DNA from: Terriglobia bacterium
GTDB taxonomy: Bacteria; Acidobacteriota; Terriglobia; 20CM-2-55-15
Direction of reading: 5' to 3'
Assembly (NCBI GenBank): GCA_963664115.2
Contig: CAXWPJ010000002.1
Span: 224,001 to 288,000, forward strand
Length of the DNA: 64,000 nt
This document shows positions 29,772-52,782 of this stretch, piece by piece; position 1 is the first letter of the stretch, and each line of letters starts with the position of its first letter. The notes beneath the pieces are model-generated. The model made no database searches. It was not told the DNA's origin and worked only from the letters and a program-made list of their open reading frames with translations. Both the position numbers and the translations under genes were made by a program.

Positions 29772-29811
29772 ATTCTCACTGTCCGACAAGGTCTTCTCGG
29801 ACATTGAGAAT
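29772..29811. repeat. Palindromic putative recombination site, copy 1 (two 'right-type' arms)
   Basis: ATTCTCACTGTCCGACAA-GGTC-TTCTCGGACATTGAGAAT. Confidence 0.8.
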
Positions 29812-30047
29812 TTCACCGAACGGAAACTCTCCTCTCGCCTGCCGTTCCTTGGGGTCGTTGCCTGCTCGCCGGGCACCGAGATCCCCGAGGCGTCGGGAGA
29901 CTTGATGTGGTTCGAAGGCGGCCGATTGATCGTGGGGGACGGCAGCGCTATTATCACTGATTCAGCCGGAGGTGACTGCCATGTCCCTGCTTTCGACGTC
30001 CGCTGACCACACACACGCTCACTCCTGAAAAAGATGGGCCCCTGCAT

Positions 30048-31274
30048 GTGACCCGCCGCTGCTTTGGTATAGGGATCTGTCGCAACGTCGCCCCTGAGTT
30101 GTTCGGGGAAGTGCCGGCGGAATCGGGCACAACGGGGGCCGGCGCGTCTGGTCGCCCGGGGTCCTACGAAGCAGTGGCGTTCACCGGCGTGCTACGCCAG
30201 CCCCAAGGTGACGACGATTTCACGGACGCGCGGGAGGCGGCGCGACTCTGCCCCAACGGCGCCATCCGCGTCGCGCCGTTTGCGCGGTCCACGCTGACGA
30301 GCGAACGACGTTCGGCGCCACGGCCGTGGCCCCAGCGCCTCGAAGACAACGTATGGGCCGTGGGACACCCATCACCCAAGAACTTCGGGGCCATGCCGTA
30401 CTTCGTTGAGCTGCCGGGTGGAGGCATACTCGTAGATCTACCTCAACCGAGTGATGCGCTGTTCGAGTGGCTCGACGTGCATGGCGGGGTTCGCTGGATC
30501 TTCATCACCCACCGTGACCACGCCTCTCACCACCGCGCCTTCGCCGAACGATTTCCGGACTGTCGGCGAGTGATTGGCGCGGATGACGTGGTCATGCGCG
30601 AGACGAAATACCGGGCCGGGACGATGGACGTCGAGGTCAAGTTAGACAGTCGCACCGTCGTGTCGCTTGACGGCACGCCGATCCCGGTCGATGAACTCGA
30701 CCATGCCGAGTGTGCCGTCATTCCGCAGCCGGGGCACACACCTGGCTCGCTTTGCCTTCTGTACCGCGACCGCTTCTTGTTTAGTGGCGATCACCTCCAC
30801 TACTCGCGCCTCCAGGAGGCCGTCGTGGCGGCGCGTCTCGTATGCTGGGAAGACTGGGAGCGCCAAACGGATTCGGTTCGGACGCTCGCACGATTGGCCG
30901 AGGCCGGCCGCCTCCGGTTTGACTGGCTGCTCGCGGGACACGGTGAGTGGCATCACTTCACACCCGATGGTGGTGGCGCGCTGGCTGCGCTCAAGGAAAC
31001 AGTGGAATGGATGGGCCAGCAGCCGCCCGGGCGCACCTCCTTGGTCAACTGGGTAACATTCGTGTTCATGCGCACGAAGCCCCGCAGTCGACTTGTTCGC
31101 GTGCTGCGCCTGATTGGCGGGGAGAGCGACGATACGTGGGTGCTGCCTCACGCAGTAAGGCACTACGTTCCTGATCACGACCCAACAGCTGCGCACGCGG
31201 CGATCCGCCGCGCATACGCAATCGGCGCGGTCGCCCTCGCAGGACTTGTCCTGCTTGTGCACGGACTACTCTAA
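30048..31274 (+). CDS. Ferredoxin-like N-terminal domain + metallo-beta-lactamase fold protein; 5' end possibly frameshifted
   Basis: CFGIGICRNVAPELF...LCPNGAI; THRDH, PGHTPGS, FSGDH, GHG; C-terminal TM; RBS-bearing ATG at 29981 is out of frame. Confidence 0.8.
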   Translation: MTRRCFGIGICRNVAPELFGEVPAESGTTGAGASGRPGSYEAVAFTGVLRQPQGDDDFTDAREAARLCPNGAIRVAPFARSTLTSERRSAPRPWPQRLEDNVWAVGHPSPKNFGAMPYFVELPGGGILVDLPQPSDALFEWLDVHGGVRWIFITHRDHASHHRAFAERFPDCRRVIGADDVVMRETKYRAGTMDVEVKLDSRTVVSLDGTPIPVDELDHAECAVIPQPGHTPGSLCLLYRDRFLFSGDHLHYSRLQEAVVAARLVCWEDWERQTDSVRTLARLAEAGRLRFDWLLAGHGEWHHFTPDGGGALAALKETVEWMGQQPPGRTSLVNWVTFVFMRTKPRSRLVRVLRLIGGESDDTWVLPHAVRHYVPDHDPTAAHAAIRRAYAIGAVALAGLVLLVHGLL

Positions 31275-31289
31275 GCTCTGCTCCGGAAG

Positions 31290-31636
31290 CGTTGGAGGTG
31301 CGGTGCGGCAAAGCGTATCAGTGAACGGGGGGACGCAGCCAATGTGGACCGCCAACGGTGAACTCTTTTGTCGGACGTTGTCGGGCGACAGAATGATGGT
31401 GGTCGAAGTCTCTCTCGGACCGGACCTGGTGCTTGGCGGAACGCAGCAATTGTTCGAGGCGTTTTATGACATGGGTCCGGGTGGTCCATACTGAAACTAC
31501 GACGTGACAGCCGACAGCCAGCGATTCCTCATAGTCCAGAACACCCCGATTACAAACAGCGAGGCAGTGCCGCCCCCGAATCAACATCGTCCTGAACTGG
31601 TTTTAAGAACTGAAGGAGCGGGTGCCGGTACCTTAA
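31290..31636 (+). pseudogene. C-terminal remnant of Ser/Thr kinase with TolB/PD40-like propeller (K1)
   Basis: VSVNGGTQPMWTANGELF...DRMMVV...*NYDVTADSQRFLIV...INIVLNWF*ELKERVPVP*; two in-frame stops, no start. Confidence 0.8.
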
Positions 31637-31644
31637 TTTTCCGG

Positions 31645-31680
31645 GTCAAGTCCTGATAAATCTTCTCGGACCTTGAGATT
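31645..31680 (+). repeat. Palindromic site, copy 2
   Basis: GTCAAGTCCTGATAA-ATC-TTCTCGGACCTTGAGATT, 8 bp after the K1 stop. Confidence 0.8.
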
Positions 31681-31981
31681 TCACATCGCCGGACCGAAAC
31701 AATCTGTAGCTCCGAAAATCGGGACTTTTTCATGGGAACTCCTGATCTCAATATGCCAAAATGCTCCATGTATGACCTGTCTTTGTTTACGGGAAGCTTA
31801 CGCAGGCATTCTACGATCAATCGTTTGAGATCCTTGGTCAACTAACTGCTAGGTCTCCTGTAGCAGAACGCGCCCCGCCCAATTTTAACCGGCGAATCCA
31901 TGATCGCGCCGTTCTTGCTTTTGCCATGTGCGGAGCCCCGGCCGGGCAATTTTTGAAGGCAGTTCGCAGGAGGTATTTCAG

Positions 31982-32401
31982 ATGCTCCAATCCCTAAGTT
32001 TTAAACGATTTGCAGTAATTTCCGTAGTTGCATTGATGGGCTTGGCGGCGTGTCGCCATCCATTCCAAGTTCGGGTGACGGATTTTCGGGGTGGCGCGAG
32101 TCCTTCTTTTTTTCAAGGCGAATCCCTGAAAATGGGCGTGCATTGGGACCAGGAAGATGCAAATAAGGCAGTTCGCTGTCAACTACTTGACACAAATACG
32201 GGTGAAAGCAAGTGGGAAGGCGGGGCCAGTGTACCTGTCGTCGAAAACGGCTCCCTCGAAACGCTGGCCTTCGATCCGCCACTCCCTTCAGACGGTCAAC
32301 TCGGCCTGACCGCGGGTGCGTATCAGTGGACATGTGACCTGGAAGAATACGGGACGTCAGGGGTCTACTTCGACATAGTTGAGCGTTTTCGACATAATTG
32401 A
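31982..32401 (+). CDS. Hypothetical lipoprotein (paralog of 60274-60681)
   Basis: GGAGG RBS, lipobox LAAC, two further Cys; colinear paralog elsewhere in the window. Confidence 0.8.
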   Translation: MLQSLSFKRFAVISVVALMGLAACRHPFQVRVTDFRGGASPSFFQGESLKMGVHWDQEDANKAVRCQLLDTNTGESKWEGGASVPVVENGSLETLAFDPPLPSDGQLGLTAGAYQWTCDLEEYGTSGVYFDIVERFRHN

Positions 32402-32660: not shown

Positions 32661-32685
32661 TAAGTCCGAATCAACCAAGAAAGCG

Positions 32686-32723
32686 TCTCAAGTCCTGAGA
32701 AATCATCTTGTCGGACGTTGAGA
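32686..32723 (+). repeat. Palindromic site, copy 3
   Basis: TCTCAAGTCCTGAGAA-ATCATC-TTGTCGGACGTTGAGA. Confidence 0.85.
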
Positions 32724-32968
32724 GCCCCGCTGATTCAATCATTGCTTCCAACCCGCTCGTTCGAAAGCTAGGGCTGGTTGCCAGAAGCCGACTTCTGGGG
32801 CGTTGAATGTTGATCGGTAAACGAAACGGCGTTAGTCAGGAGCTATCCGGAAGACGGATGTCGTGACCCTTCCACTAACCGTAACTAATACTGCTGGCCG
32901 GTTCGGGCGCAGTTAGGTGTCCGTCCCGGAACTTGTTGTCGGAAAATTCTGGGAAGCCCCGGTATCGG

Positions 32969-34402
32969 CTAGCGATTGCCGAGCGCCCCTCGCAATTTGT
33001 CGGCTAGTGATCCAAAGGACGCCGTCACCGGGTCATCCGGACGCTCGGCGTACTCCCGTAGTTCCGCTTGCTCCCGTTGCTTGGCGACCGCCGTCTTGCT
33101 GAGGCGAATCCGGCCCCCGGCCGGATCAACCTCAAGCACCATCACCTCAACCTCGCTGCCCAGGGGAAAGGCCCGCAGCATGTCCTGGTCGCGGTCCACC
33201 CCGGTTTCCGCAGTCGGTATGAGGCCGGTCTTGCCAGGTGCCAGGAACACGAACACGCCGAACGTCTCGTGCCGCTCCACCTTTCCGACCAGGATCGACC
33301 CCCCCACGATGCCACTCTGCGGTGCTCGGGCTCCGGCCGTGCGGGTGGAGCCTTCCTCCAGCATTGCGACACCCATACGCTGCTTCTCGGGGTCGATGCT
33401 CAAAATCTCGAACGCGGCGGTGTCGCCCACAGCGATGGACTTCGTCCACCCGTCGGCGCGCGCCGTTGGGGCGAACGTCGAGCTGTGCGCAAGCGCCTCG
33501 ATGCCAGGTTCCAGCTCTACGAAGGCACCGAACTCCATCATTCGGGTGACGCGGCCCGTGTGCACCTGGCCCACTTCGTAGCGGGTCGCCACCCCGGTCC
33601 ACGGATCCTTCTGGAGCTGTTTCAGCCCGAGCGATATCCTGTCGGCGGCGTCGTCCACGCGCAGCACCTGGACGGTGATCTGATCGCCGGGCGCCACTAT
33701 TTCGCTGGGACTGCTCACGCGCGACCAGCTCATCTGGGACACATGCAGCAGGCCCTGGATGCCGCCACCCAAATCCACGAACGCGCCGAATTCGGGCACC
33801 GAGACGACGCGCCCCGTGAGCACCGCGCCGGCTACGATGGATTTGCGAACCTCGGCCGCAACGGCGCGCTGCTCCTCTTCGAGCTGCTTGCGCCTCGAGA
33901 CCACGATGTTCTTGCCGCCTTCCTTGTACTCGATGATGCGGAAGGTGTAGACCTGCCCCTCGTGTACGGCCGGATCGGATGTGCGGGCGATGTCGATTTG
34001 CGACATCGGGCAGAACGCGCGCTCTCGAGCGATGCGCACCTCGTAGCCGCCCTTTATCGCCGTCTCGACCTTACCCTCTATGGCGAGGCCGTCCTGGAAT
34101 GCATCTTCGATTTCGCGCTGGGTGGCAGCGTTGCGTACGCCCCTCCGCGACAGCGTGATGCCTCTGATCGTGGAGACGACGATGGCCTGGAGGGGATCGC
34201 CAACCGCGACTTCCAGGTTGCCGTCGGCGTCTTTCAGTTCCGCGACGTCGATCTGGGCCTCGCTCTTGCCGCCCACGCTGACAAGGGCCACCTCGGCGCC
34301 GATGGCCACGATCGTGCCATCGACGGTCTGGCCCCGGTCGAAGCGCTTGGCCCCGACCGACGCTTCGAACATCGCGGCGAAATCTTCATCTGGTTCGTTC
34401 AT
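32969..34402 (-). CDS. Multi-S1-domain protein (ribosomal protein S1 paralog)
   Basis: MNEPDEDFAAMFE; repeated FGAFV.L..G..GL.H S1 motifs; ISLGLKQLQKDPW; C-terminal FGSLADKL. Confidence 0.88.
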   Translation of the reverse strand: MNEPDEDFAAMFEASVGAKRFDRGQTVDGTIVAIGAEVALVSVGGKSEAQIDVAELKDADGNLEVAVGDPLQAIVVSTIRGITLSRRGVRNAATQREIEDAFQDGLAIEGKVETAIKGGYEVRIARERAFCPMSQIDIARTSDPAVHEGQVYTFRIIEYKEGGKNIVVSRRKQLEEEQRAVAAEVRKSIVAGAVLTGRVVSVPEFGAFVDLGGGIQGLLHVSQMSWSRVSSPSEIVAPGDQITVQVLRVDDAADRISLGLKQLQKDPWTGVATRYEVGQVHTGRVTRMMEFGAFVELEPGIEALAHSSTFAPTARADGWTKSIAVGDTAAFEILSIDPEKQRMGVAMLEEGSTRTAGARAPQSGIVGGSILVGKVERHETFGVFVFLAPGKTGLIPTAETGVDRDQDMLRAFPLGSEVEVMVLEVDPAGGRIRLSKTAVAKQREQAELREYAERPDDPVTASFGSLADKLRGALGNR

Positions 34403-34747
34403 TGCATACACCTCGGAACTGGAACGGGAGCGATTATACCAGTGAATATTTTTGAACCGCAACGCCACCCGCAGCCTACGTCTGACATGTGATTGATGGA
34501 ATTGCACCAACGAGCTGAGTCGTTCCCTAGCTCCCGGGAATTTGCGGAAGTGTTACCGAAGTCGCCTTCTGGAAAACTGAGACTCCCATCTTGGACTCCT
34601 TCAAACTGTGCCATTTCCCCCTAGAGTTACACTTGGAGGCGGGCCGACGCGTGATTACTCCTCCCTTGTCGCCTGGCGTTTAGGAACGGGCAGCATTAAC
34701 GACCCAAAAGGCGGCTTCGGGGAAGTCGGCGGAGACAGAGATGACGG

Positions 34748-34786
34748 GTCAAGTCCTGAGAAATCATCTTCTCGGACGTTGAGAAT
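34748..34786 (+). repeat. Palindromic site, copy 4
   Basis: GTCAAGTCCTGAGAA-ATCATC-TTCTCGGACGTTGAGAAT. Confidence 0.85.
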
Positions 34787-35324: not shown

Positions 35325-35375
35325 ATCCTTCTGATCTGGTTTGAAGAACTGAAGGAACGGGTGCCGGTTCCGTGA
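35325..35375 (+). pseudogene. Kinase C-terminal remnant (K2)
   Basis: [16 protein letters not shown]. Confidence 0.7.
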
Positions 35376-35381
35376 TTCCGG

Positions 35382-35419
35382 TCTCAGGGCGCGATAAATC
35401 CCGTTCGCGGCCAGTGAGA
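35382..35419 (+). repeat. Palindromic site, divergent copy 5
   Basis: TCTCAGGGCGCGATAA-ATCCCG-TTCGCGGCCAGTGAGA, 6 bp after the K2 stop. Confidence 0.55.
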
Positions 35420-35490
35420 GTCCGTTGCCTCCCAGACAAGGTTAAGTTGATGCGTGGACGCTACGTTTCTGGACGTGGCACAATCACCCT

Positions 35491-35859
35491 GTGGCAATTG
35501 AACTGAATCACACAATTGTGCCAGCAAAGGATAAGGTGGCGTCAGCAGAATTCTTTGCTCGGATTTTTGGTCTGCCATACGAGGGAGCCGTAGCGCACTT
35601 CGCTCCTGTTCGAGTCAATGACTCGCTGACGTTCGATTTTGACGACCGTGAGGACTTCGATTCACACCATTACGCGTTTAAGGTGAGTGAGGAAGACTTC
35701 GACGCAGTTTTTGAACGGCTTCAGAATGAGGGAATACCCTACGGGAGTGGGCCACCACCAAACGTGGACAACATGAAGATAAATCGACGGCGTGGTGGTC
35801 GCGGTGTCTACTTTTCTGACCCCAACGGACACGTCCTGGAGCTGCTGACCGTCGGGTAA
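35491..35859 (+). CDS. VOC/glyoxalase family protein
   Basis: LNHTIVPAKDK..SAEFF..HYAFKVSE..GRGVYFSDPNGHVLELLT. Confidence 0.9.
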   Translation: MAIELNHTIVPAKDKVASAEFFARIFGLPYEGAVAHFAPVRVNDSLTFDFDDREDFDSHHYAFKVSEEDFDAVFERLQNEGIPYGSGPPPNVDNMKINRRRGGRGVYFSDPNGHVLELLTVG

Positions 35860-35954
35860 GAAGACCGCTCCCCGAGGCGCTGCCCCCAGGCAACCAAACG
35901 GTGCCGAAGAAGTCGGCTTCAAGGAAGTCAGGCCACTGGGGCAGCAAATGTACT

Positions 35955-35992
35955 TGTCGGCGCCCGAGAGATCCTTGTCGTAAGTTGAGAAA
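35955..35992 (+). repeat. Palindromic site, degenerate copy 6
   Basis: GCCCGAGAG-ATCC-TTGTCGTAAGTTGAGAAA matches mainly the right arm. Confidence 0.45.
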
Positions 35993-36027
35993 CGGACCCA
36001 CTCCTTTCCGAAAAGTCGACTGCCGCC

Positions 36028-36125
36028 CGACGGCCTCCGGCCGCGCGCGGGTTGACATAACACCCATACGACGACATTGCCAGCGCTGCCATTGTCGTCA
36101 GACCCTTCTTATTCCGCTTATCCGC
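36028..36125 (+). repeat. 98-bp dispersed direct repeat, copy A
   Basis: Ungapped match to 38230-38327 with about 14 differences by eye. Confidence 0.85.
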
Positions 36126-36228
36126 CTTCGGATTCCAGCGTCTTAAGTTTGTCGCCCGTGCGGCCCTGAAGTAGCTGGCGACCACCCTTGGACAGTTCCA
36201 TGCGCTCCGGGCTGGAGACTGCCCGGGA

Positions 36229-37671
36229 TCAATCCGCACGCCGACCGGCGGCTTCATAAAGCTCCGCGACCGGAACCACGCCCGGAGCGTGGATCGAAAG
36301 AAGCTGCTCGACGTCCAGATTGAGTCGTTCGATGTTGTCGACGAGATTGGCGACCGTCGCCACACCTTCCGTCAGCGCCGGCACGCCGGGGCCCGGCGAA
36401 TCAAAAATATCGGCTTGGACAAGCATCTTTTCTGCGGGCAGGTAGGCCATGATGGCGCCGTCGGCATGCGGGCTGTCTTGGATCAGGTACAACTCAATCG
36501 TACGGGTGCCGTCGGTGAGAACTTTCTTCTCCGTCAGTGTCTCAAAGACCGCCCGGGTTCCGGACCGCGAAAGTCTGTCGGGAGCGATCGTGCTGGGCGC
36601 CGCGAAGATCCTTGCGTAGTACGGCGCGTTGAGACTGTGCGTCACGATGGTTGCCCCTTCGGCGGCGAACGCCCGCAATCCACCGGAGTGATCGAAGTGG
36701 TGGTGCGAGTTGATGACGTATCGAATCGGCTTGTTCGGAATCTGTCTCTTCGCCTCAGCGATGAACTGGAGTGCGCGCTCGTCATTGCGGGAAGCGCCCA
36801 TCATGACGATGTAGTCCTCGAAGTCGACGACGACGGAATTGTTCGACCCGCCCTGGATCAGAAAGACACCGTCAGCCACTGGGATGGACCTGAATGCTGT
36901 GGGTGCGGCTGGAGCAGCGGCCCGCTCTGGAGGCTCAATGTTGACGGCCACGTTGGCCTCGGCGCGGGTGACGGTCAGATCGAGGACGGGAAAACCGCCC
37001 TGGTTCTGAACAATACGGGTGGGAAACCAGAGGCCGCTAAAATCCCGATAGTCCGCATACGTCACGTCGATCAACAGGTCGCCCAGCGCAGCGTATTCCA
37101 CCCAGGTCTCAACCTTTGCAACCCTGTTCTGCTCATTGATGTAGCCGTTCACCCGGTACTTGTCCTGCACGGTGAAGCTGACGACTCTGTAGACCGTGCC
37201 GCCTATTGTTTGCGATTCCGCCGTCGGGTTGTTCGCCATCGCCGCCTTAATGAATCCGTGCGGCGTGATCCAGATATCGACCTGCTGTGCCCATGGAGCA
37301 TCCGGCCGGATGAACTGATCCCGGCTTTGGTTGACGACGGGGATCCCGATTCCCCCGCCGCCCCGCCGGTCCACCGCAGTGCGCACCGACTGGACTCTCG
37401 ACGCGGGGGCGTCGAAGTCAATCTCACGCGTGTAGGTGCTAAGGCTAAAGCGGGGCCAGGGCGCGTTCGGATTCACACTCTGGCCGAACGTGAAGCTCGA
37501 GCCGCTACCGGAATACTGAATCGTTTTCAGGTCTTCAGCGCCCATGGCACGGGCCGCATTATTAAGGATGGATCTGGCATCGGGCGCCACAGCAGTCCTC
37601 TGGGCGAGGCCAACTGAAGGCAGCGCGGCCAGCAGAATTGTGAGTGTGGCTACGGTCACGGATGATTTCAC
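36229..37671 (-). CDS. Secreted metallo-beta-lactamase-fold hydrolase
   Basis: Signal peptide; SHHHFDHSGGLR, SPHADG, QAD, SIH. Confidence 0.88.
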   Translation of the reverse strand: MKSSVTVATLTILLAALPSVGLAQRTAVAPDARSILNNAARAMGAEDLKTIQYSGSGSSFTFGQSVNPNAPWPRFSLSTYTREIDFDAPASRVQSVRTAVDRRGGGGIGIPVVNQSRDQFIRPDAPWAQQVDIWITPHGFIKAAMANNPTAESQTIGGTVYRVVSFTVQDKYRVNGYINEQNRVAKVETWVEYAALGDLLIDVTYADYRDFSGLWFPTRIVQNQGGFPVLDLTVTRAEANVAVNIEPPERAAAPAAPTAFRSIPVADGVFLIQGGSNNSVVVDFEDYIVMMGASRNDERALQFIAEAKRQIPNKPIRYVINSHHHFDHSGGLRAFAAEGATIVTHSLNAPYYARIFAAPSTIAPDRLSRSGTRAVFETLTEKKVLTDGTRTIELYLIQDSPHADGAIMAYLPAEKMLVQADIFDSPGPGVPALTEGVATVANLVDNIERLNLDVEQLLSIHAPGVVPVAELYEAAGRRAD

Positions 37672-37952
37672 CTGATTGCCTCCAATGTCGTTTCCAATCT
37701 GAGGGAATTCCGACGTAGTGCCTGTGTCGGGAATCGAATTGTAAGAATCCGTATAAATCTAACTTCAGTTGGAACTTCTAAGCAAGAAAAGTCTCAACTC
37801 GCATCCAATTCGGAGCGATTCACTCTAACGTCATACCTGATTGCCAAGGCAGTGAAGCCCTCGCCCCAAGCGATAGAAAAATGAATAGCGGGCCGCCCTC
37901 CGATCGGTTCATGTAGGGGCATCTGCCATATCGAGGTATCGGGGGAGAGGAC

Positions 37953-38229
37953 ATGGACCGCATCAAGCGCGCTGAAACAATGGTATTAGCACTCATCCTG
38001 GTGTGCACTCTGGTGGCCCTTCCGGCCGCCGCCCAGAGTGATTTTGCCGGAGAGTGGCTCGACCATCGGTCACGAAGATATCGAAGTGGATCGCCGCGGT
38101 GGCGCCGTATACGGCGACTACACCGGCCTGCCGATCAACGAGGCGGCCCGCATGCGCCGCGAGACCTACGACGCATCGGTATTCGCGCTGCCCGAATGGC
38201 AGTGCCGTCCGCATGGTGTGGATTTCGCG
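37953..38229 (+). pseudogene. Frameshifted, 3'-truncated exported protein related to the expanded family
   Basis: Signal peptide + AQSDFAGEW, then in a shifted frame HED...GDYTGLPINEAAR...LPEWQCRPH, cut at the 98-bp repeat. Confidence 0.65.
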
Positions 38230-38327
38230 CGACGGCCTGCGGCCGCGCAGGGGTTGACATGACGCCCGTACGGCGACACTGTCCGCGCTGCCATAGTCGT
38301 CAGACTCTGCTTGTTCCGCTTATCCGC
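38230..38327 (+). repeat. 98-bp dispersed direct repeat, copy B
   Basis: Matches 36028-36125; lies exactly between two gene fragments. Confidence 0.85.
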
Positions 38328-38482
38328 TCGAGGCCAGTGAAATCGTCCAGGTGACTGCCAGGGACACAGCCGGGGAGAAGACCTTCTCGGTGCGGATGCG
38401 AATCGATACTCCCGTGAAGCTCGAGTACTACCTGCACGGCGGGATCCTGCAGTATGTCCTGCGGCAGATTCTCGCGGCCTGA
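38327..38482 (+). pseudogene. 3'-terminal fragment of aconitate hydratase AcnA
   Basis: EIVQVTARDTAGEKTFSVRMRIDTPVKLEYYLHGGILQYVLRQILAA*, the canonical AcnA C-terminus (not in the ORF track). Confidence 0.85.
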
Positions 38483-38507
38483 TCAACTAGCGGACTGTCA
38501 TAATCCA

Positions 38508-39704
38508 CTAGCCCAGCGAGCGACCGGCGATCCAGCTTCCTCCGATGATCGTCCCAAGCGTGCTTCCCAGGTTCGAGAGCACGACGACCAGCAGAATGCG
38601 ACTCACCGGGTTGGTCCAGAAACCCTTGACCGTGCTGATCGACTCGGACAGATTCTCGAGGTCTTCAACCGTCGGCTTCTTGAGGACCGCTTGCGCCAGG
38701 CCCGAGACCCAACCGGCGGCGATCATTGGGTTCAGGCTGGTAAGCGGCGCCGCCACGAAGGCGGTGAGAATGGTCAGCGGATGCGCCAGCGCAAGGAGTG
38801 CACCGAGTGCGGAGAACGTGCCGTTGACCAGCACCCAGATGGCCACCGACTCCAGCGAGTGCTGTGCTCCGCCTTTGAAGAAACCGTAAACGATCAGTCC
38901 GACGATCGCCACAGGGATGCCCCACTTGAGGAGCTGCGGCCAGAACGAGGGCTTGGGTTGCTGTTCAAGGGGCCCCAAGGGGGTGTCCTTCTGGATCTCC
39001 TGCAGGATGCCGGGAACGTGGCCTGCGCCCAAGATCGCGACGACAGTCTTGCCTTCGGCGCTGCGGATCTTCTGCGACAGGTAGACGTCTCGTTCATCGA
39101 TCAATGTGCCCATGACGGTGGGGAATTCCTTGGCCAGGAGCCCCAGCACGTCGGCAAGCTGTTCCTCCTGCTTGATCTCCTCGACGGTTTCCGCGTCGAT
39201 CTTGCCGACGAAGAACAGGCTCATCATGAGCTGTCCCATCATCTTCAGCTTGCTCCAGGAGCCCAGATTGCCCCAGGTCCGGCGCAGAGTGATCTGAATA
39301 TCGCGGTCGGCCAGCACCAACGCTGCCTGCCGCTTCTCCGCCAGCCGGATTCCTTCGACCATTTCTGCGCCCGGAGTGACGCCGAGTTGCTGCGCGATGC
39401 GGCGCTGGTACGAGCTCATGATGAGGGAGCTCAGGAGAAGCATGGCCTTTTTCTCGCGGATGATCTTGACGATGTTGGTTCGCTTCCACTGCTCGCGATC
39501 CATGATGTTGCGGTAGCGCGACTCGCAGAGTTCGACGCATATCGAGTCGGGATTGACGGCGTCGATGGTATCTCGGACGTCCTGAACGCTCTGCTTCGAG
39601 ACGTGGGCCGTGGCGACGAGGTAGATCTGCCGGCCGTCGAGTTCTACCTTCTTGACGCAGGAGGGGATCTCCGGCGTGGGTTTGCTGGGCTCGATTTCCG
39701 TCAT
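38508..39704 (-). CDS. TraB/GumN (pheromone-shutdown TraB-like) membrane protein
   Basis: ATAHVSKQS, ICVELC, PGAEM, DRDIQITLRR, LIDERD, GAGH; C-terminal TMs with APLTSLNP. Confidence 0.92.
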   Translation of the reverse strand: MTEIEPSKPTPEIPSCVKKVELDGRQIYLVATAHVSKQSVQDVRDTIDAVNPDSICVELCESRYRNIMDREQWKRTNIVKIIREKKAMLLLSSLIMSSYQRRIAQQLGVTPGAEMVEGIRLAEKRQAALVLADRDIQITLRRTWGNLGSWSKLKMMGQLMMSLFFVGKIDAETVEEIKQEEQLADVLGLLAKEFPTVMGTLIDERDVYLSQKIRSAEGKTVVAILGAGHVPGILQEIQKDTPLGPLEQQPKPSFWPQLLKWGIPVAIVGLIVYGFFKGGAQHSLESVAIWVLVNGTFSALGALLALAHPLTILTAFVAAPLTSLNPMIAAGWVSGLAQAVLKKPTVEDLENLSESISTVKGFWTNPVSRILLVVVLSNLGSTLGTIIGGSWIAGRSLG

Positions 39705-39995
39705 GGAGTGTCCGCTTGTCCCTTCAAGGCCTTGCCCAGCTTGAGTCGCAGGCGGTCCTCGATCCAGTGGTCATCCCACCATTCCACCGGGTTTACCGGC
39801 AGACCGTGCAGGAACATCGCGAAGTGCAATGTGTCACCACCGGCAAGATCGGTCTCGCCCTTGCGGCCCAGAGTATCGCCGCGGGCAACTTCCTGCCTCT
39901 CGCTGACGTCCACCGAGGAGAGGTGGCCGTAAAGAGACATCAAACTGTAGCCATGGTTGACCACCGCATTGCCGTAAATGCCGAACGAGCCGGCT
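39701..39995 (-). pseudogene. 3' fragment of M23 family peptidase
   Basis: GIYGNAV.NHG..LMSLYGHLS..GETDLAGGDTLHF..PVNPVEWWD; N-terminal part absent. Confidence 0.8.
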
Positions 39996-40297
39996 CTCAA
40001 GATAATAAGGCCGACAGCGTGCACCTCTCAGGTGCATTATCACCCGTTTCTCATGTATCCGTTCTATCGGTGGAAATCCAGAGGAACTCAAACAACAAGT
40101 GCCAGTGTCGGGATTCGGGTCGTCAGGTCCTTACAAATGCGGTTGTAGGGCTTTACCATCTGGCATTAATGGCGGGTGCCCTTAGCAACGAGCAGCGGGA
40201 TTACCTGCCATAAGTCGCCTTGTGTTTAGGAACGCGCTTCCTACGGCTGATTGCCAAGGCCGCTTCAATCGTATATCGGCTATTCGGACAAGTGTCG

Positions 40298-40338
40298 TTC
40301 TCAAGTCCTGAGAAATCATCTTGTCGGACATTGAGAAT
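40298..40338 (+). repeat. Palindromic site, copy 7
   Basis: TTCTCAAGTCCTGAGAA-ATCATC-TTGTCGGACATTGAGAAT. Confidence 0.88.
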
Positions 40339-40393
40339 TCTACAGGGGGTTAAGTGGCCTTCCTCACGAAGCCGTGACCTCAGCCCACCTCCA

Positions 40394-41437: not shown

Positions 41438-41585
41438 GTCTTTCCCTCCGATTCCCTTGAGGTAGGTCACATGAAAACGAAGAATGTACTGCATGTCAAT
41501 CTTTGTCTACGTCAACGCTGCATGGGCTCGTGAATCATGCCATCCCAACAGAGTCGGATGGCAGACCTGTCCATCTCCGAAATCC

Positions 41586-41623
41586 ATTCTCAAGTCCTGA
41601 CAAATCATCTTGTCGGACGTTGA
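41586..41623 (+). repeat. Palindromic site, copy 8
   Basis: ATTCTCAAGTCCTGACAA-ATCATC-TTGTCGGACGTTGA. Confidence 0.85.
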
Positions 41624-41718
41624 ACGATTCATTCCCAACCGTTTCGAAGCAAGGACACGCCAATCTGTCAGAAATCGAGATATTCGGAAACTCCGAAACG
41701 AGTAGGTTCCGTTGATGT

Positions 41719-42822
41719 GTGATGTCCAGGAACGATCGAATACTCACCCTGTCGTGTGAGAATAGAGTTCCGATGACTGGCACTGGCAACACGGGCAGGA
41801 TGGCTGGAGAGTCTGGCCTGTTCACGGCCTGGGAGCGGCACACCCGCCGATGGGCGCTCGTATTTGCAGTGTTGACGCTGGTGGTGTCCGCACTCGTCAC
41901 ATTCGTGTTCATGCGCACGGGTCGGGATGGGGCGGTCGCGCTTGTGTTTACGTTGATCCCGGCACTTGTGGTTTACGCCTGGTGGACACGGAGGATCCGA
42001 CGCCGGCGAGCCATCCTCCGTAAACCATTCCCACGCGAATGGGAAGCGGTACTGCAGCGAGACGTCGTCTTCTTTAGGGTGCTCGACGGATCAGACCAAC
42101 AGCGGTTTCGTCGTCAGCTACAGGTGTTTCTGGGAGAGAAGCGAATTACAGGCATCAAAGTACAGCTCGATACGACGACACGCGTGCTTGCCGCCACCAG
42201 CGCCATCATTCCCATCTTCGGATTCCCCGACTGGGAATGGGACCAGATTAACGAGGTGCTGATCTATCCGACACGGTTCGACGGCAAATTCGAGTTCGGC
42301 GACACGCGAGCTCACAACACCCTCGGCATGGTCGGAACGGGCAGTCTGAACCGGCTTATGATCCTCTCCAAGCCCGATCTGATCAACGGTTTCAGGAACC
42401 CGACCGACAAGCGGAACGTGGGTGTACATGAGTTCGCGCATCTGGTCGACAAGACTGACGGCGTGATCGACGGAGTACCGGAGGTGGGACTCAACCGGCA
42501 GGCAATCGGGCCCTGGATTGATCTGGTGCGACGCAAGATGGCAGAAATCGAGGCGGGCACCTCTGACATCAACCGCTATGCGCTGACGAACGAGGCGGAA
42601 TTTTTCGCCGTGATAGCGGAGTATTTTTTCGAGCGGCCCGTTGTTATGCAACGCAAACACCCGGCCCTTTACGAGGCTCTCGAACGTGTGTTCAACCAGA
42701 GTCTTCGCGTTCGTGCGGATGCATTTCGGAGAGAGCTGTCCAAGGGTCGGCCGAGGTTCGGTCGGAATTCGCCTTGTCCGTGTGGGAGCGGACTCAAGTT
42801 CAAGAAGTGCTGTCGGGAGTAA
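41719..42822 (+). CDS. MtfA/M90-family zinc peptidase with N-terminal TMs and C-terminal SEC-C motif
   Basis: [54 protein letters not shown]; exact start uncertain. Confidence 0.9.
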
Positions 42823-42917: not shown

Positions 42918-42959
42918 ATTCTCAAGTCCCGAAAAATCATCTTGTCGGACATTGAGAAT
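42918..42959 (+). repeat. Palindromic site, copy 9
   Basis: ATTCTCAAGTCCCGAAAA-ATCATC-TTGTCGGACATTGAGAAT. Confidence 0.88.
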
Positions 42960-43115: not shown

Positions 43116-45086
43116 TTACGGTAGACTGAACGCCACCAACTCGGCGGGATGTTGGCTGTCGCCAATCGCTACGACGATGTATTGCTGGCCCCCGAACATG
43201 TAGCTGACCGGTGGTCCTGTCGTACCCGCAGGGAGTTCCGTTTCCCACCGGGTTTCTCCCGTTGCCTTGTCGTAGGCGCGGAACTTGTTGCCACCACTGT
43301 TCGTTACGATCTCGGCCGGCATTCCCGGTGGAACCCGCGGGTCATTGTCGACGTCGATGTTCGTCAGACCTTCGCCCATGAACAACAGGGTTTTGGTAAG
43401 CAGAGGCGAAGGCCGCCCGGGGTAGCCGAGCGGTCCTAGATTCAGATGTTCAATTGCCGGGTGATCACGGGGGCCGTCTCCATTCGGAACCATCCAAACG
43501 TGCTCGCCTGTATTCATGTCGATGGCCGTGATCCTCCCGTAAGGTGGCTTGAACAGCGGCAGGCCACGCGGTCCCGCGATCCAACGTCGCGTACCCTTCA
43601 CGTACCTTAGGTTCTCTCGTTCAGGATTGCCTGGCCGAAGGTCGGCCACAAACGGCGACGTTATCGAAGGGATATACAGATAGCCAGTGTCAGGATCGAA
43701 CGCCGCACCCTGCACATCACCTCCGCCCTGCGAACCTGGAAGTTGAATCGTTCCCAGCGTGCTATTGGGGCCATCGCCGCGAATCGATGGCGGAGTGAAC
43801 AGGGGGCCAGTGACGTAGCGCCGCACGATCTCAATCGCTTCAGCGCGAAGCTCCGGCGTGAAATCGATCAGATTGTCCTCGATGGAGCCTTGCAGGTCGA
43901 ATGGTGCGGGCATTGTCGGGAACGGTTGTGTCGGAGAAGTCTGCTCGCCCGGTGTCGTCGACTGAGGTACAAGCCGGTCTTCGATGGGCCAGACCGGCTC
44001 GCCGGTCTCGCGGTCAAAAACGAAAGTGAACGCCTGCTTTGTGATTTGCGCGACTGCTTTGATCGGCTGACCATCCACCGTGATGTCCATCAGAATGGGT
44101 GCTGCGGGAAGATCGTAATCCCACAAGCCATGACGGACGGTTTGGAAGTGCCATACTCTTTCCCCGGTCTCTGCGTCCACCGCGACGAGGCTCTGACTGA
44201 ACAGATTGTCGCCAATCCGGTGGCCGCCATACATGTCACTCGTTGCTGACGAGATCGGCATGTAGACGTAACCGAGATCTTCATCGGCGCTGAACAACGC
44301 CCATACGGGTGCATGGCCCGTATAAGACCATGCGTTGTCTTCCCAAGTGTCGGTACCGAACTCTCCAGCTTGAGGAATAGTGTGGTACACCCAGCGTAGC
44401 GCGCCAGTACGTACATCGAAAGCACGCACATCGCCTCTTATGGCCTCTTTCGTCGCGAACGTATCCGACATCGTATGACCCACGACGACCACGTCCCGCA
44501 CAACCAGCGGCGCGCCGCCCCACCGGTAGAATGCACCTGCAGCCAAACCGGTCCTCAGATCGACCCGACCCGAGTCACCGAAATCGGCGTACAGCTCTCC
44601 GGTCTCCGCGTCGAGGGCGTACATATACTGTCCGCGTTGGACGAGGATCCGCCCGTTGGTTCCGTCAGACCAGTACGCCACGCCACGGGTACTCACTCCA
44701 GCGAGCTCCTCGCCAACAGGAGGTTCCTGAACCCAGATTGTCTCGCCCGTTCCTGGATCAAACGCTTCGACGAGACCAATCCCGTTCGGAATGAAAGCGA
44801 CACCATCCACCACGAGCGGGAGGGTGGGGTAGTTGTTCGAGAAGCTAAGCTCTGAATTCTCATCTAGGTAATATTCATCCACGATTGGGCGCTGCCAAGC
44901 GATCTGTAGCCTGTTGACATTGCTGGCGTCGATCTGACTGAGTGGTGTGTACTTAGTGCCGCCGATGTCGCCGCCGAACGTACGCCACTCGCCGTCGGCG
45001 GCACCCATCTGAGCCTGGGCAGACGGAATCAGCAATAACGTACTGATCACGACACCGCACCACAGGGGAAAGAATTTCGTGGTCAT
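43116..45086 (-). CDS. Secreted PQQ-dependent dehydrogenase (glucose/quinate/shikimate family)
   Basis: KYTPLSQIDASNV, TRGVAYW, DMYGGHR, HGLWDYDLPAAP, FKPPYGRITAID. Confidence 0.92.
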   Translation of the reverse strand: MTTKFFPLWCGVVISTLLLIPSAQAQMGAADGEWRTFGGDIGGTKYTPLSQIDASNVNRLQIAWQRPIVDEYYLDENSELSFSNNYPTLPLVVDGVAFIPNGIGLVEAFDPGTGETIWVQEPPVGEELAGVSTRGVAYWSDGTNGRILVQRGQYMYALDAETGELYADFGDSGRVDLRTGLAAGAFYRWGGAPLVVRDVVVVGHTMSDTFATKEAIRGDVRAFDVRTGALRWVYHTIPQAGEFGTDTWEDNAWSYTGHAPVWALFSADEDLGYVYMPISSATSDMYGGHRIGDNLFSQSLVAVDAETGERVWHFQTVRHGLWDYDLPAAPILMDITVDGQPIKAVAQITKQAFTFVFDRETGEPVWPIEDRLVPQSTTPGEQTSPTQPFPTMPAPFDLQGSIEDNLIDFTPELRAEAIEIVRRYVTGPLFTPPSIRGDGPNSTLGTIQLPGSQGGGDVQGAAFDPDTGYLYIPSITSPFVADLRPGNPERENLRYVKGTRRWIAGPRGLPLFKPPYGRITAIDMNTGEHVWMVPNGDGPRDHPAIEHLNLGPLGYPGRPSPLLTKTLLFMGEGLTNIDVDNDPRVPPGMPAEIVTNSGGNKFRAYDKATGETRWETELPAGTTGPPVSYMFGGQQYIVVAIGDSQHPAELVAFSLP

Positions 45087-45224
45087 CTTCAGGACCTCCA
45101 ATGTCAGAAATCGTAAGGCAAAAATGGGCTGACTGAGTCTTTACCGGATGCTAGTTTGGCCTTCCAACCATGTCAAAAGAAAATGTGCTGTGAATCGTCA
45201 ACCATCCAGATCGTCCGATACGAT

Positions 45225-45337: not shown

Positions 45338-45375
45338 ATTCTCAATTCCCGATAAATCTTAGCGGACCTTGAAAA
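45338..45375 (+). repeat. Palindromic site, copy 10
   Basis: ATTCTCAATTCCCGATAA-ATC-TTAGCGGACCTTGAAAA. Confidence 0.7.
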
Positions 45376-45458
45376 ACCTCCGAAATCGCGGCCAATTTTC
45401 ACAGTCCGACTGTGTCGTTTAGAGATTTTGATGCCTATAACTCCTTCCTTTTAATATT

Positions 45459-47402: not shown

Positions 47403-47440
47403 TTTAAGGGCTTAAAATCCCGTTGGCGGACGTCGAGATT
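47403..47440 (+). repeat. Palindromic site, divergent copy 11
   Basis: TTTAAGGGCTTAAA-ATCCCG-TTGGCGGACGTCGAGATT; same ATCCCG spacer as copy 5. Confidence 0.5.
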
Positions 47441-47514
47441 TCGTGTACACCTAACCCAAGTGTCTCGTAGACTACCCCCAGCGATCTAAGCCCTGACCTA
47501 ACAAGCCACTGACT

Positions 47515-47713
47515 ATGGAATCCGGCACACAACTCGGCCACTACTAAATCCTCTTCGCCATCGGTAAAGGCGGCATGGGTGAAGTGTGGAAAGCGAAGGA
47601 CACCAAACTCGGGCGTGAAGTTGCCATCAATTCGCTTCCTGAAGAGTTCGCAAAAGATGCGAATCGTCCAGAACTGGTTTGAAGAACTGAAGGAACGAGT
47701 GCGGGTTCCCTAA
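47515..47713 (+). pseudogene. Internally deleted Ser/Thr kinase (K5): N-lobe joined to C-terminal tail
   Basis: [49 protein letters not shown] joined out of frame to [16 protein letters not shown]. Confidence 0.9.
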
Positions 47714-47721
47714 TTTTCGAG

Positions 47722-47759
47722 GTCAAGTCCTGACAAATCATCTTCTCGGACGTTGAGAA
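47722..47759 (+). repeat. Palindromic site, copy 12
   Basis: GTCAAGTCCTGACAA-ATCATC-TTCTCGGACGTTGAGAA, 8 bp after the K5 stop. Confidence 0.85.
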
Positions 47760-47816
47760 ATGAACCAATCCCGCCCCATGCAGGCTAAGAGCCAGATTTA
47801 CCAATGGAGAATAACG

Positions 47817-48104: not shown

Positions 48105-48122
48105 AGATAATCGTGAAAATTG

Positions 48123-48163
48123 TTCTCAAGTTCTGACAAATCATCTAGTCGGAAATTCAGAAT
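48123..48163 (+). repeat. Palindromic site, copy 13
   Basis: TTCTCAAGTTCTGACAA-ATCATC-TAGTCGGAAATTCAGAAT. Confidence 0.8.
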
Positions 48164-48307
48164 CGAGTGTTCAGTCCAGAACATGGCTGTGATTGGGTTC
48201 TACCAAATGATTTCGGGCGATGGTGGAGTTGTGGCGACAAAAACGTCTGGAGCTCGGGATTGTTCCGCCCCGCGACTTGTAGCGGATTAGCGAATCCCTG
48301 AGATCCG

Positions 48308-48334
48308 TTCTCAAGTCCTGACATATCACCTTGT
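48308..48334 (+). repeat. Palindromic site, copy 14 (right arm lost)
   Basis: TTCTCAAGTCCTGACAT-ATCACC-TTGT. Confidence 0.65.
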
Positions 48335-50586: not shown

Positions 50587-50683
50587 TGAATAAGAAAGTT
50601 GCACTTCTGGGGTGCGTGGTCGCCCTCACCAGTGAAAATTGGTGTGACCAAGTTTCGTATGACCAAGTAAGGAGGTATATCGG

Positions 50684-51100
50684 ATGCGAATCATAAAACT
50701 GCCTGTTGTTGTTCTCGGCCTGTGCTGTTTACTGTTGCTGACCGTCGCGCCGGCCGGGGCGCATCATGCCTTTGCCGCGGAGTATGACTCCACCCGGCCA
50801 ATCGAGTTCCAGGGGACGATCACGAAGGTGGAACTGATAAATCCACACAGTTGGATCACGATAGACGTCCGGCTCGACGACGGCACGACGGAATCCTGGG
50901 AAATCGAAGCCGGCGCTCCCAACTCTTTGTACAGGCGAGGCTTTACGCGGGATTCCCTGCCGATTGGAACAGAGGTCACGGTCCGGGGTTACAGGGCCAA
51001 ATACGAAGGATTGAGGCGGGCCAACGGCGGGAGCATCACGATGTTGGACGGATCCACGATTTTCCTGGGAGGCTCCAATCCGAACAATCGGGACCGGTAA
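50684..51100 (+). CDS. DUF6152-like exported protein
   Basis: AAGGAGG RBS; AGA-HHAFAAEYD; INPHSW; AGAPNSLYRRG. Confidence 0.9.
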   Translation: MRIIKLPVVVLGLCCLLLLTVAPAGAHHAFAAEYDSTRPIEFQGTITKVELINPHSWITIDVRLDDGTTESWEIEAGAPNSLYRRGFTRDSLPIGTEVTVRGYRAKYEGLRRANGGSITMLDGSTIFLGGSNPNNRDR

Positions 51101-51312
51101 GCCCTCGGCCTCCTTTCGGGCTGGTCTTACGGGGACCAATCGGCTTGAAGTCTGCCCATTTCGGAGTGGCGGCCCCAGGCGCCCGCAACTGGCGCGCAGT
51201 CCAAACTCTGTTGGAAATCGCTAGACGCGCAAAAAGCTTTACGTTCAAGATATCGATTGCCACCGATTTTGGCTTCCATGCCATCGGCCCAGGCCTCGGT
51301 GCTGGTCTTCAA

Positions 51313-52656
51313 CTACCGTTTGTCCACGACGACGCGCCCGTCACGAACAACGAGAACAACCTTTAACAGGTCTGAAGTTTCGGCCAGCGGATTGCCATCG
51401 ATCATAACGATGTCCGCAAGTTTGCCAGGCTCCAGCGTGCCCAGATCGCTACTGCGACCAATGGCAGCAGCGGCGTTCTTCGTCATAATCTGGATGATGT
51501 CCCGACGGGAGAATACGAGTCGCAGCGGTTTCAGTTCGTGTTCCAGCGTGTCTTTCGGCAGATAGCTCGTGTCTGTTCCAAAGGCATAGATACCTCCGGC
51601 ATCCCAGAACAGCCGCGCGTTCACCGGACCCTGTCCCACGCTGTACCACGCCGCCGCGCCCTCCGGATACAGACCCAGGTCGCGGAAACGGGCCTCGTTG
51701 TCAAAGCCGGTCGCCTCACGCACAGCCTGGTTGTCTTCGGCAAATGTCGGAACGAATACGCCAAGAGTCGACACCATCGGGATTCGGGCATCGGCGATCA
51801 ACTGGGCTGTGGACACGTCCAGCAGGTCCGTATGCGGCGTATGCATGAGCACATGCGTGTTGGCTCGAACGGCCGCCAGCGTGTCCTGAACGCTGGTGGC
51901 GTGCGTAATACTGCGAAGGCCCTGTCTGCGGCTTTCATCGGCGATGATGGCCAGGGTGTTCTCCTCAGGCCCCCCCGGGGTGATAGTAATATTCGTTTTG
52001 ATCGCTTCGACGCCGGCTTCAGCCGCCGCCCTGATCGTTGCACGAGTGTCCGCTTCAGCAATCGCGTCGGGAGGCTCGGTGGGACGATTTTCCGCACGCG
52101 ATGAACCGATCCGGGCGGGGTCACTGAAACCGGCTCCACCCCTACCCGCGGCTCCACCTCTACCTGGGTTTTCCCCTCTACCGGCGGCTCCCAGCTGGGC
52201 TCGGGTGGTCACGACGATGCGGGGACCGTCGAGTTCTCCCGCATCAATGCGACGGCGGAGTTCGACCTGGCTTTCCGCGCCAGCGCCTGCGGACTGCAGC
52301 GCGGTGAACCCGGCCTCCAGAAACTCGCGCATGCGGTCGGTGGCTTGCTCGGCGAGCCACTCGGCCGCCGGACCCCGGATAATGTGGCGGTGCGCATCGA
52401 TGAAGCCCGGCATGAGCGTCAGCCCCTGTGCATCTATGAGACGCGCACCATCCGGTCCGGTGAGAGCGCCGGCACTCACCGAAGTAATCCGGCCGTCGGC
52501 GACGATGACTGTGCCGTCGGCAATGACGCCACCATTTCCATCAATGATGCGCGCGTTCGTAATGACCAGATCCTGGGCTGCAAGGTCCGCCGAAACAATA
52601 AGATGTCCGACAAGCACCCAACAGACAAATACAAGTAGTCGTTTCACTGTTCTCAT
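51313..52656 (-). CDS. Secreted amidohydrolase family protein
   Basis: MPGFIDAHRH, THA, MH, FGTD, GTLEPGKLADIV. Confidence 0.88.
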   Translation of the reverse strand: MRTVKRLLVFVCWVLVGHLIVSADLAAQDLVITNARIIDGNGGVIADGTVIVADGRITSVSAGALTGPDGARLIDAQGLTLMPGFIDAHRHIIRGPAAEWLAEQATDRMREFLEAGFTALQSAGAGAESQVELRRRIDAGELDGPRIVVTTRAQLGAAGRGENPGRGGAAGRGGAGFSDPARIGSSRAENRPTEPPDAIAEADTRATIRAAAEAGVEAIKTNITITPGGPEENTLAIIADESRRQGLRSITHATSVQDTLAAVRANTHVLMHTPHTDLLDVSTAQLIADARIPMVSTLGVFVPTFAEDNQAVREATGFDNEARFRDLGLYPEGAAAWYSVGQGPVNARLFWDAGGIYAFGTDTSYLPKDTLEHELKPLRLVFSRRDIIQIMTKNAAAAIGRSSDLGTLEPGKLADIVMIDGNPLAETSDLLKVVLVVRDGRVVVDKR

Positions 52657-52733
52657 CCTCCTGGACCGAGCGTATGAAGACGTGCATCATGATATCTCAA
52701 ACCACGAATCAGGGGAGGGATGCCGGTGCGTTG

Positions 52734-52782
52734 ATTCTCAAGTTCAAGACCCGACAATTCATTCGTGTGGGAAGTTGAGAAT
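52734..52782 (+). repeat. Palindromic site, divergent copy 15
   Basis: ATTCTCAAG(TTCAAG)ACCCGACAA-TTCATT-CGTGTGGGAAGTTGAGAAT. Confidence 0.5.

Follow-up and report, generated by a model that had tools for sequence, protein, structure and literature searches.

A two-class family of Xer-like sites that may mark the ends of relocated gene modules in a Terriglobia genome

We analyzed a window of 64,000 nucleotides from the Terriglobia bacterium assembly GCA_963664115.2 (positions 224,001 to 288,000 of contig CAXWPJ010000002.1, that is, C2:224001-288000 of the source genome G000, which comprises 4.89 Mb in 12 contigs), in which a family of short, mirror-like repeats resembling the sites of Xer-type tyrosine recombinases punctuates the interval 29772-52782. 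An initial annotation had listed 15 copies of this repeat, and a motif is present at all 15 places, displaced by 0-8 bp. Fourteen copies are two-armed (score of at least 5 in the weight model described below), including a weak one at 47400 (score 6.9), while the copy at 48307 retains a left half only; no two-armed copy occurs in the rest of the window. The ATCATC spacer proposed for the repeat is complete in seven copies, whereas others carry ATC (31642 and 45338), ATCCCG (35380), ATCC (35953) or TTCATTC (52740). The first copy (29772-29811, no assigned strand), which had been taken for a reversed exception, is instead a hybrid of two right arms, composed of a reversed class-B right arm, a 4-bp remnant and a class-A right arm (the classes are defined below), and likely arose by an aberrant A x B join within the spacer.

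Immediately to the right of the hybrid lies the stub (29812-29850, plus strand) of a 106-bp empty module that occurs in full at four other loci, each time where an A and a B site face each other. A gene encoding a Fer4 and metallo-beta-lactamase (MBL)-fold protein (30048-31274, plus), part of a block that is 98% identical in the related genome G002 with no site at either end there, is followed by the 3' remnant of a kinase-PD40 gene (31321-31635, plus), which abuts a class-A site with its spacer shortened to ATC (31642-31680). Class-A sites with the full ATCATC spacer at 32684-32725 and 34745-34786 enclose a ribosomal protein S1 paralogue (32969-34402, minus) in a block that is 97% identical in G004. 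A kinase-tail stub with a degenerate site (35325-35421, spacer ATCCCG) and a second degenerate site (35953-35992, spacer ATCC) flank a glyoxalase-family gene (35491-35859, plus) whose block is site-bounded at both ends in G004. Next come an MBL-fold gene and a TraB/PrgY/GumN gene (36229-40138, minus; in G002 the TraB block stops at a site), followed by three ATCATC class-A sites, at 40297-40338 (the top-scoring copy of the window), 41586-41627 and 42918-42959, which enclose a DUF6152-fusion module (40339-41585, minus) and a gene for MtfA (Peptidase_M90) with SEC-C (41719-42822, plus). A pyrroloquinoline quinone (PQQ) dehydrogenase gene (43116-45101, minus) is accompanied by kinase-tail stubs at ~43017 and ~45252 and by a class-A site with an ATC spacer and a degenerate right arm (45338-45376). 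The segment 47400-47712 (plus) consists of a very degenerate site, a kinase start (47515) and a kinase tail (47663), and represents an internally deleted kinase module. Two more ATCATC class-A sites (47719-47760 and 48122-48163), an open reading frame (ORF) of 114 amino acids (aa) at 47760 without a Pfam match, the left half-site (48307-48324) and a degenerate site with a 7-bp spacer (52740-52782) complete the cluster. All sites from 31642 onward lie on the plus strand and, apart from the left half at 48307-48324, were placed by the weight model. The earlier gene assignments for S1 (PF00575), DUF6152 and Peptidase_M90 with SEC-C hold in Pfam. The DUF6152, MtfA and glyoxalase segments are site-bounded elsewhere as well. 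Several of the proposed cassettes, namely S1 (in G004), PQQ dehydrogenase (in G002 and G004) and TraB (in G001), are not site-bounded in these relatives.

To describe the family beyond the window, a two-arm position-weight model was trained on seven window copies and then iterated over G000. The model identified 201 sites at a score of at least 20 (a few of them counted twice owing to overlapping contig ends and to contig C11 partly repeating C6), compared to none at a score of at least 12 in the reversed genome. The site is 42 bp long and mirror-like in layout (18+6+18 bp, with an 11-6-11 core), with the consensus (ATTC/GAGG)TCAAGTCCTGA(G/T/C)AA + 6-bp spacer + TT(C/G)TCGGAC(G/A/C)TTGAGAAT. 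Consistent with the tyrosine-recombinase-type geometry suggested initially, it comprises two arms around an asymmetric 6-bp spacer, which is kept in 171 of the 201 sites; the arms, 95-99% conserved at most positions, are set apart by offset single-base insertions, and each site has an intrinsic orientation. Site centres fall outside called genes in 199 of 201 cases, as expected from the initial annotation (genes were called with a simple home-made caller and cover 83.5% of G000), and the next gene start lies 14-1654 bp away, with neighbouring genes pointing in either direction. The sites group into 53 clusters, 19 of which contain at least four sites and together hold 145 sites over 346 kb; a neighbour within 5 kb was found for 169 of the 201 sites, compared to a mean of 78 and a maximum of 106 in 300 random intergenic placements. 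The clustering in variable islands predicted for the family is present. In G000 the clusters are not tied to tRNAs, switches of GC skew are not enriched at sites (8/32 within 5 kb versus a background of 19%), and no Rfam family covers the site.

The sites do not form the single integron-like array of co-oriented copies envisaged at first, but a genome-wide system of two spacer classes, the second of which is inverted. Class A carries the spacer ATCATC (127 sites in G000) and class B ACGAC(A/C) or close variants (~30 sites). Among neighbours within 8 kb in G000 and in fetched regions, not whole genomes, of eight relatives, A-A neighbours were direct repeats in 127/130 pairs and strict A-B neighbours were inverted in 58/58 pairs; pairs involving other spacers, tallied separately, showed mixed orientation. 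All 17 pairs less than 200 bp apart face each other, across a gap of 13-27 bp (13 pairs) or a conserved 106 bp (four pairs). Although the arms of A and B sites are near-identical, their flanks never cross spacer classes. To the left of B sites lies a conserved promoter-like stretch together with, in 49 of 79 cases, the start of a Ser/Thr kinase gene that points away from the site, ~76 bp from it; to the left of A sites lie the last kinase codons in 151 of 441 cases. None of these 151 kinase-tail flanks adjoins a B spacer (0/151), and no B-type flank adjoins an A spacer (0/38). Intact kinase copies encode 877-902 aa with Pkinase and PD40 domains, and most copies are stubs. The 65 A-to-A modules of G000 have a median length of 1.7 kb; 26 of them contain one gene of at least 100 aa and 11 contain none. 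The simplest reading of these patterns is that A-to-A modules derive from a founder in which a class-B and a class-A site enclosed the promoter and the Ser/Thr-kinase-PD40 gene. In the way that C modules alternate with D modules in dif systems, the founder would have alternated with empty modules of 13-27 or 106 bp. Where other genes illegitimately replaced the kinase, A-to-A modules would have resulted, and these could then move through A x A exchange by integration, excision or cointegrate routes.

We compared the surroundings of 450 sites, counting two sites as a flank-sharing pair when at least 250 nt at an identity of at least 85% begin at the site. Such junctions, which had been predicted, were found in 90 pairs (not independent, as pairs have members in common): 77 share one flank only, 11 share both and two share flanks with sides swapped. 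Ten of the 11 both-flank pairs are duplicated assembly stretches and one is G047/G048, and both side-swapped pairs, as well as three of the 77 one-sided pairs, lie at IS91-type elements. The spacer is identical in 26 of 27 right-sharing pairs, indirect support for an exchange that may be limited to identical or near-identical spacers, as in dif modules. The DUF6152 module has a second copy at G000:C6:43763-45093, which extends from site to site at 99.75-99.83% identity, and the neighbours of the two copies differ on both sides from the sites outward. In one public sample (runs X20 and X21), contig depth, which is not a copy number, was ~22-25 inside this module and 12-14 outside, with steps at the sites; run X24 agrees on the right side only and X1 shows no step. 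In G003 the MtfA module has a site at each end, and in G002 it has a site at its 5' end and a left half-site, in both cases in other contexts. The gene order across sites is scrambled in relatives, as anticipated: the 10-kb core block to the left of the island is a single piece at 85% in G002, whereas island segments match scattered places at up to 98%. From 485 shared blocks, 142 were retained after removal of repeats; of their 278 ends, 203 lie within clusters, and 23 of these (11%) fall in sites, compared to an expected 0.9% for any position or 3.5% for intergenic positions, a 3-13x excess. In 20 of the 23 cases the site is present in both genomes.

The position of the exchange within the site was assessed in 43 close one-sided pairs (at least 93% identity; 16 left-sharing and 27 right-sharing). 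Outer arm positions track the shared flank (R11-R18 in 25-27 of 27 pairs, L1-L4 in 12-16 of 16), whereas the inner positions L15-16 and R3-4 do not. Among 248 A sites, variants fall into four linkage blocks (the left flank with L1-4; L8-16; R3-10; R15-18 with the right flank), with linkage inside each arm (z 5.6-7.2) and none across the spacer (z 1.9). Spacer deletions and one spacer hybrid point to central cutting. A spacer-dependent first strand exchange, with the branch point then migrating through the near-identical arms before host functions resolve it, would be compatible with this arrangement, and such branch migration is the likely reason, we infer, why inner-arm variants are uncoupled from the flanks. 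General homologous exchange suits the gradient of coupling, but not the strict separation of classes.

Together, these patterns point to a two-class site family that marks the ends of relocated or duplicated modules, on which a Xer-type recombinase, most likely host XerC/XerD, would act within one spacer class only; on the sequence comparisons made here, we hold this interpretation to be about an even call. XerD (C2:150455) and XerC (C9:863207) of G000 pass the NCBIfam cut-offs and are the only PF00589 proteins common, at 45% or more, to G000, G002 and G003, three site-rich genomes. No tyrosine recombinase other than XerC/D is present in all site-rich genomes (the recombinase tree was a quick one, used for grouping only), a search of five genomes detected serine recombinases and Y1 transposases in every one, whether or not it was rich in sites, and six identical 306-aa integrases beside sites are part of IS91-type elements rather than of the site system. 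By eye, none of the viewed genes among 32 cluster genes shared with the fetched G002 and G003 regions was recombinase-like. G000 contains one dif-type site (C2:108118-108145) near a GC-skew maximum, matched in 20/35 genomes of the family and mostly once in each. In a by-eye comparison with this dif, the right arm matches the XerC arm at 8/11 positions, and 5-7/11 positions agree between the left arm and the XerD arm.

Several observations weigh against this interpretation. XerC/D also occur in site-free genomes; at the third position of the right arm, where dif has an invariant A, 98% of sites carry C or G, and the third base beside the spacer departs from dif in 69% of left arms; and the arm symmetry reaches three bases past the 11-bp Xer arm at 95-99% conservation. 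In one Acinetobacter study, a site with a divergent inner motif was bound poorly and underwent no recombination, and one directly repeated plasmid pair gave no deletion (PMC11705084). Identity at the inner positions of flank-sharing pairs (L16 in 6/16 left-sharing and R3 in 14/27 right-sharing pairs) is near the background of 0.34 and 0.51, respectively, and a clean crossover in the spacer would hold each arm with its flank and does not predict such uncoupling. Furthermore, 89% of shared-block ends lie outside sites, and in some relatives sites are missing from the S1, PQQ, Fer4 and TraB blocks; evidently, therefore, these genes were first captured by other events and only later became modules. 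No excision circles or empty sites were seen in public reads, where unitigs break at the repeat; a few read joints that skip a site were dropped as evidence for empty sites, their sides being at most 34 letters long.

The initial annotation had proposed a recombinase encoded elsewhere, possibly XerC/D; these remain the leading candidate, judged from sequence, but a recombinase carried on a module is a real rival. A dedicated, single Xer-like enzyme of 316 aa (G000:C5:52189-53154), with catalytic R, H-x-x-R and Y motifs, could serve the sites, traveling between two inverted same-class sites and being lost from many site-bearing genomes, an explanation to which we assign limited credence. Its gene sits in the only facing B-B pair of G000, and in G446 and both intact copies of G445 it also lies between inverted sites, each time of a local family; in the fetched regions of G445 the only two same-class inverted neighbours are the two recombinase modules. 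Moreover, the arms of the sites differ by offset single-base insertions, as those of difH differ by one insertion (PMC5241119). G445 and G446, two other Acidobacteriota, have sister families of their own. That of G445, with arms unlike those of G000, comprises 35 sites across the eight regions fetched and has the spacers GTCGCA/GTCGGG versus ACGCGC, and 15 of its 16 mixed-class neighbours are inverted; that of G446 has 49 pattern matches and the spacers GTCGGG versus ACGGGG. However, both genomes were found via the recombinase gene, so that the link is ascertained, and the G445 enzyme falls outside the 11 nearest relatives of the G000 enzyme although the sites are similar. Homologues occur at 55 loci, from Acidobacteriota, and a flanking inverted pair scoring at least 20/24 is present at only 3/30 testable loci (versus 4/600 control placements). 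Against a dedicated enzyme also stand the homologues in G007, G017 and G001, which have no nearby site, and G002, G003, G004, G047 and G048, site-bearing genomes in which the G000 query did not find the gene. The protein scores below all NCBIfam cut-offs, far under those for XerS and XerA; de novo palindromes around its homologues are mildly above shuffles (20/78 flanks versus a mean of 11.5 and a maximum of 18), and a promoter scan around the gene gave nothing above chance. If this explanation were right, Acidobacteriota would possess a cassette system of their own, distinct from both integrons and host-driven dif modules, in which a single recombinase in an invertible same-class module shuffles tens to hundreds of chromosomal sites and an amplified kinase module, and leaves enzyme-less arrays when lost; we put this forward tentatively. 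Between the two enzymes, XerC/D are modestly favoured by the sequence evidence.

The remaining explanations dispense with a Xer-type enzyme. That an amplified kinase module left the sites behind as passive relics, with modules moving by general homologous exchange at 34-42-bp repeats and stubs and no site-specific enzyme now active, would fit the gradual fading of arm-flank coupling toward the centre, as crossovers spread over the core would give, the 60-300 bp of extra homology that kinase stubs supply beside many sites, and the position of most block ends outside sites. It is nevertheless improbable, as near-identical A and B arms coexist with flanks and spacer classes that never mix, the arms stay conserved while the kinases decay, the two-class rule recurs in a lineage with other arms (G445), and the spacer deletions and hybrid point to central cutting. 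A single-stranded hairpin of the attC or REP type, handled by an integron integrase or a RAYT/HUH enzyme, seems very improbable. A single strand of the site can fold with two bulged bases (z -2.3 to -5.4), G000 encodes an integron integrase and two Y1 transposases, and IS110-family elements and a group II intron target the site, as such elements are known to target attC. Arm positions that vary in the stem, however, show no compensation (90 complementary pairs versus 87 expected and 158 versus 156; n=248), which favours double-stranded recognition, and the spacer-class rule is unexpected for a hairpin loop. No site lies within 2.5 kb of the integrase gene (intI at C9:714590), and the closest one on C9 is ~196 kb away; only one of five fetched Y1 loci has a site within ~6 kb (one site, ~2 kb off), and one of the two G000 Y1 matches has a site ~0.3 kb off. 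Transcription-factor operators, finally, would be palindromic and intergenic, as these sites are, and B sites do keep ~76 bp from the kinase start; this explanation is largely refuted and highly improbable, given that the distance to the next start is not fixed and genes face both ways, that sites are confined to variable islands, and that junctions and the class rule would go unexplained.

A family pattern with three mismatches gave 154, 106, 62, 17 and 3 matches in the five genomes of the genus and 0-6 in five genomes of a second genus, and was absent from the other 25 genomes of the family and from 400 other genomes of the phylum. A looser pattern over 250 other genomes revealed no further family (G073 and G096 are two rows of negative tallies only, in the 400-genome and 250-genome scans). 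The 96 matches in G296 were rejected as a site family, representing one identical, evenly spread repeat; its ~90 identical 24-bp palindromic matches are probably the end of an insertion sequence (IS) or a miniature inverted-repeat transposable element. The exact family was not found in viral contigs or in the plasmid collection, and six metagenome contigs carry it. Further Xer-like repeat families, with arms unlike the three described, lie near homologues of the 316-aa recombinase at loci L067, L085 and L022.

For comparison we used PMC13141974, PMC12907356, PMC11705084, 10.1101/2022.12.17.520857 and PMC5241119; no account of such sites in Acidobacteriota was found in a literature search that barely covered subscription journals and supplements (e.g. 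the xrs tables of the IS1202 preprint). The closest known system is that of the Acinetobacter dif modules or pdif (xrs) sites, which carry resistance genes on plasmids and include chromosomal dif module islands (PMC13141974, PMC11705084, PMC12907356). A 2026 paper calls this system unique to Acinetobacter and describes for it an identical-spacer rule and fused CD modules (PMC13141974). Both systems have unlike arms, a 6-bp spacer, modules without a mobility gene of their own, one-sided junctions and insertion sequences that target the sites; inverted sites with unlike spacers alternate in Acinetobacter and, here, in A-B pairs, although most neighbours here are direct A-A. There are a few sites per plasmid or island in Acinetobacter, compared to ~200 chromosomal sites in 53 clusters here, and directly repeated (fused, CD-type) modules, an exception there, are the majority here. 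Also unlike dif modules, the present system has two main spacer classes only, a probable kinase founder module and a putative role for XerC/D; its arms, which diverge from dif of the host at the inner motif, keep their symmetry over 14-18 bp. Its sites lie on megabase contigs with core genes, in contrast to dif modules on Rep_3/OrfX-type plasmids. By this comparison the system would work like Acinetobacter dif modules and not like an integron, but membership among dif modules is not established, because its arms and its preponderance of direct repeats set it apart and XerC/D action is putative.

XerH/difH (PMC5241119) resembles the present sites in its 6-bp centre and in near-symmetric arms that differ by a single-base insertion. 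If the 316-aa enzyme is the one at work, the presence of a Xer-like gene beside its own site would be a further likeness. XerS/difSL is likewise a single-recombinase Xer system; unlike here, XerH and XerS serve a single terminus site for dimer resolution, and G000 has XerC, XerD and a single-copy dif. Integrons have intI with attI beside the array, and their attC sites keep structure by covariation rather than sequence. They share with this system successions of co-oriented sites that are separated by one to a few genes, and targeting by IS110-family elements and a group II intron, but the arrays here have no intI or attI beside them, no structural covariation, strongly conserved sequence, a fixed 42-bp length, an inverted second class and genes in either orientation. 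REP sequences, copies of which flank a Y1 transposase (RAYT) gene, and REPINs are similar in that short intergenic palindromes number in the hundreds and some of them face each other at close range; in contrast to these, the present sites are island-confined, oriented by spacer class, mark module junctions and show no link to Y1 loci.

Five mobile elements insert at sites of the family, none of them in the window. An IS30-family element splits the site in 6/6 full copies and, by eye, duplicates the two central spacer bases. Half-sites occur at an end in 7/7 copies of one IS110-family element, 6/9 of another, 3/7 of an IS91-type element and 3/3 of a short group II intron, whose insertions lie in the right arm, compared to 4/79 copies of an abundant 1.86-kb IS, which we take to be IS256-like. 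The intron, of ~0.7 kb, matches Rfam RF01999 and RF00029 with no ORF called inside (L255 2316-2932, L257 2488-3114). The integron integrase of G000, above the TIGR02249 cut-off, lies in a region (C9:710575-715549) with unrelated genes downstream in the same direction.

Elsewhere in G000, a second, degenerate dif-like site with the same centre lies 3.4 kb from dif; the interval C2:108118-111541, in which small ORFs and an IS are enclosed, resembles an element that has integrated at dif. The genome appears heavily rearranged, judging from 32 polarity switches in GC skew and ~79 copies of one IS, with no link to sites. Contig C11 repeats parts of C6 at 99.9% in another arrangement, one switch of which falls within a site (C6:27115 / C11:55480), and represents an alternative haplotype or a duplication. 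In the window, the segment 29679-29704, ~70 bp to the left of the first copy and unrelated to the site family, is an almost perfect Xer-like palindrome whose inner bases are canonical and whose centre is 6 bp long; lone similar sites occur at C2:322773, C2:488430 and C12:514887. Many paralogues of an uncharacterised, secreted-looking family of ~300 aa, paired with DUF6152 genes, lie inside and outside the site cluster (21340-62084). The region of a 157-aa ORF is present as an inverted duplicate (31937-32387 and 60276-60726, 84%), the first copy of which appears disrupted. Short repeats at 10222-10402, 36023-36126, 38224-38328 and 47416-47684, the last being the deleted kinase module, have many matches in relatives. 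The segment 40200-43000 is represented in runs X2-X12 (shares 0.20-0.37), recorded as sediment, seawater and sponge metagenomes.

These findings suggest that a distant phylum holds a much larger, chromosomal, dif-module-like version of a system described in Acinetobacter, with a simple two-class grammar and at least three lineages with different arms. The defined substrates (A, B, hybrid and dif sites) and the two candidate enzymes bear on how module sites avoid or exploit XerC/D, and the five site-targeting mobile elements are further objects of study. If confirmed, the system would show how hundreds of Xer-like sites coexist with one dif, provide a route for the expansion of kinase-PD40 genes, and explain the accumulation and reshuffling of accessory genes in these genomes.

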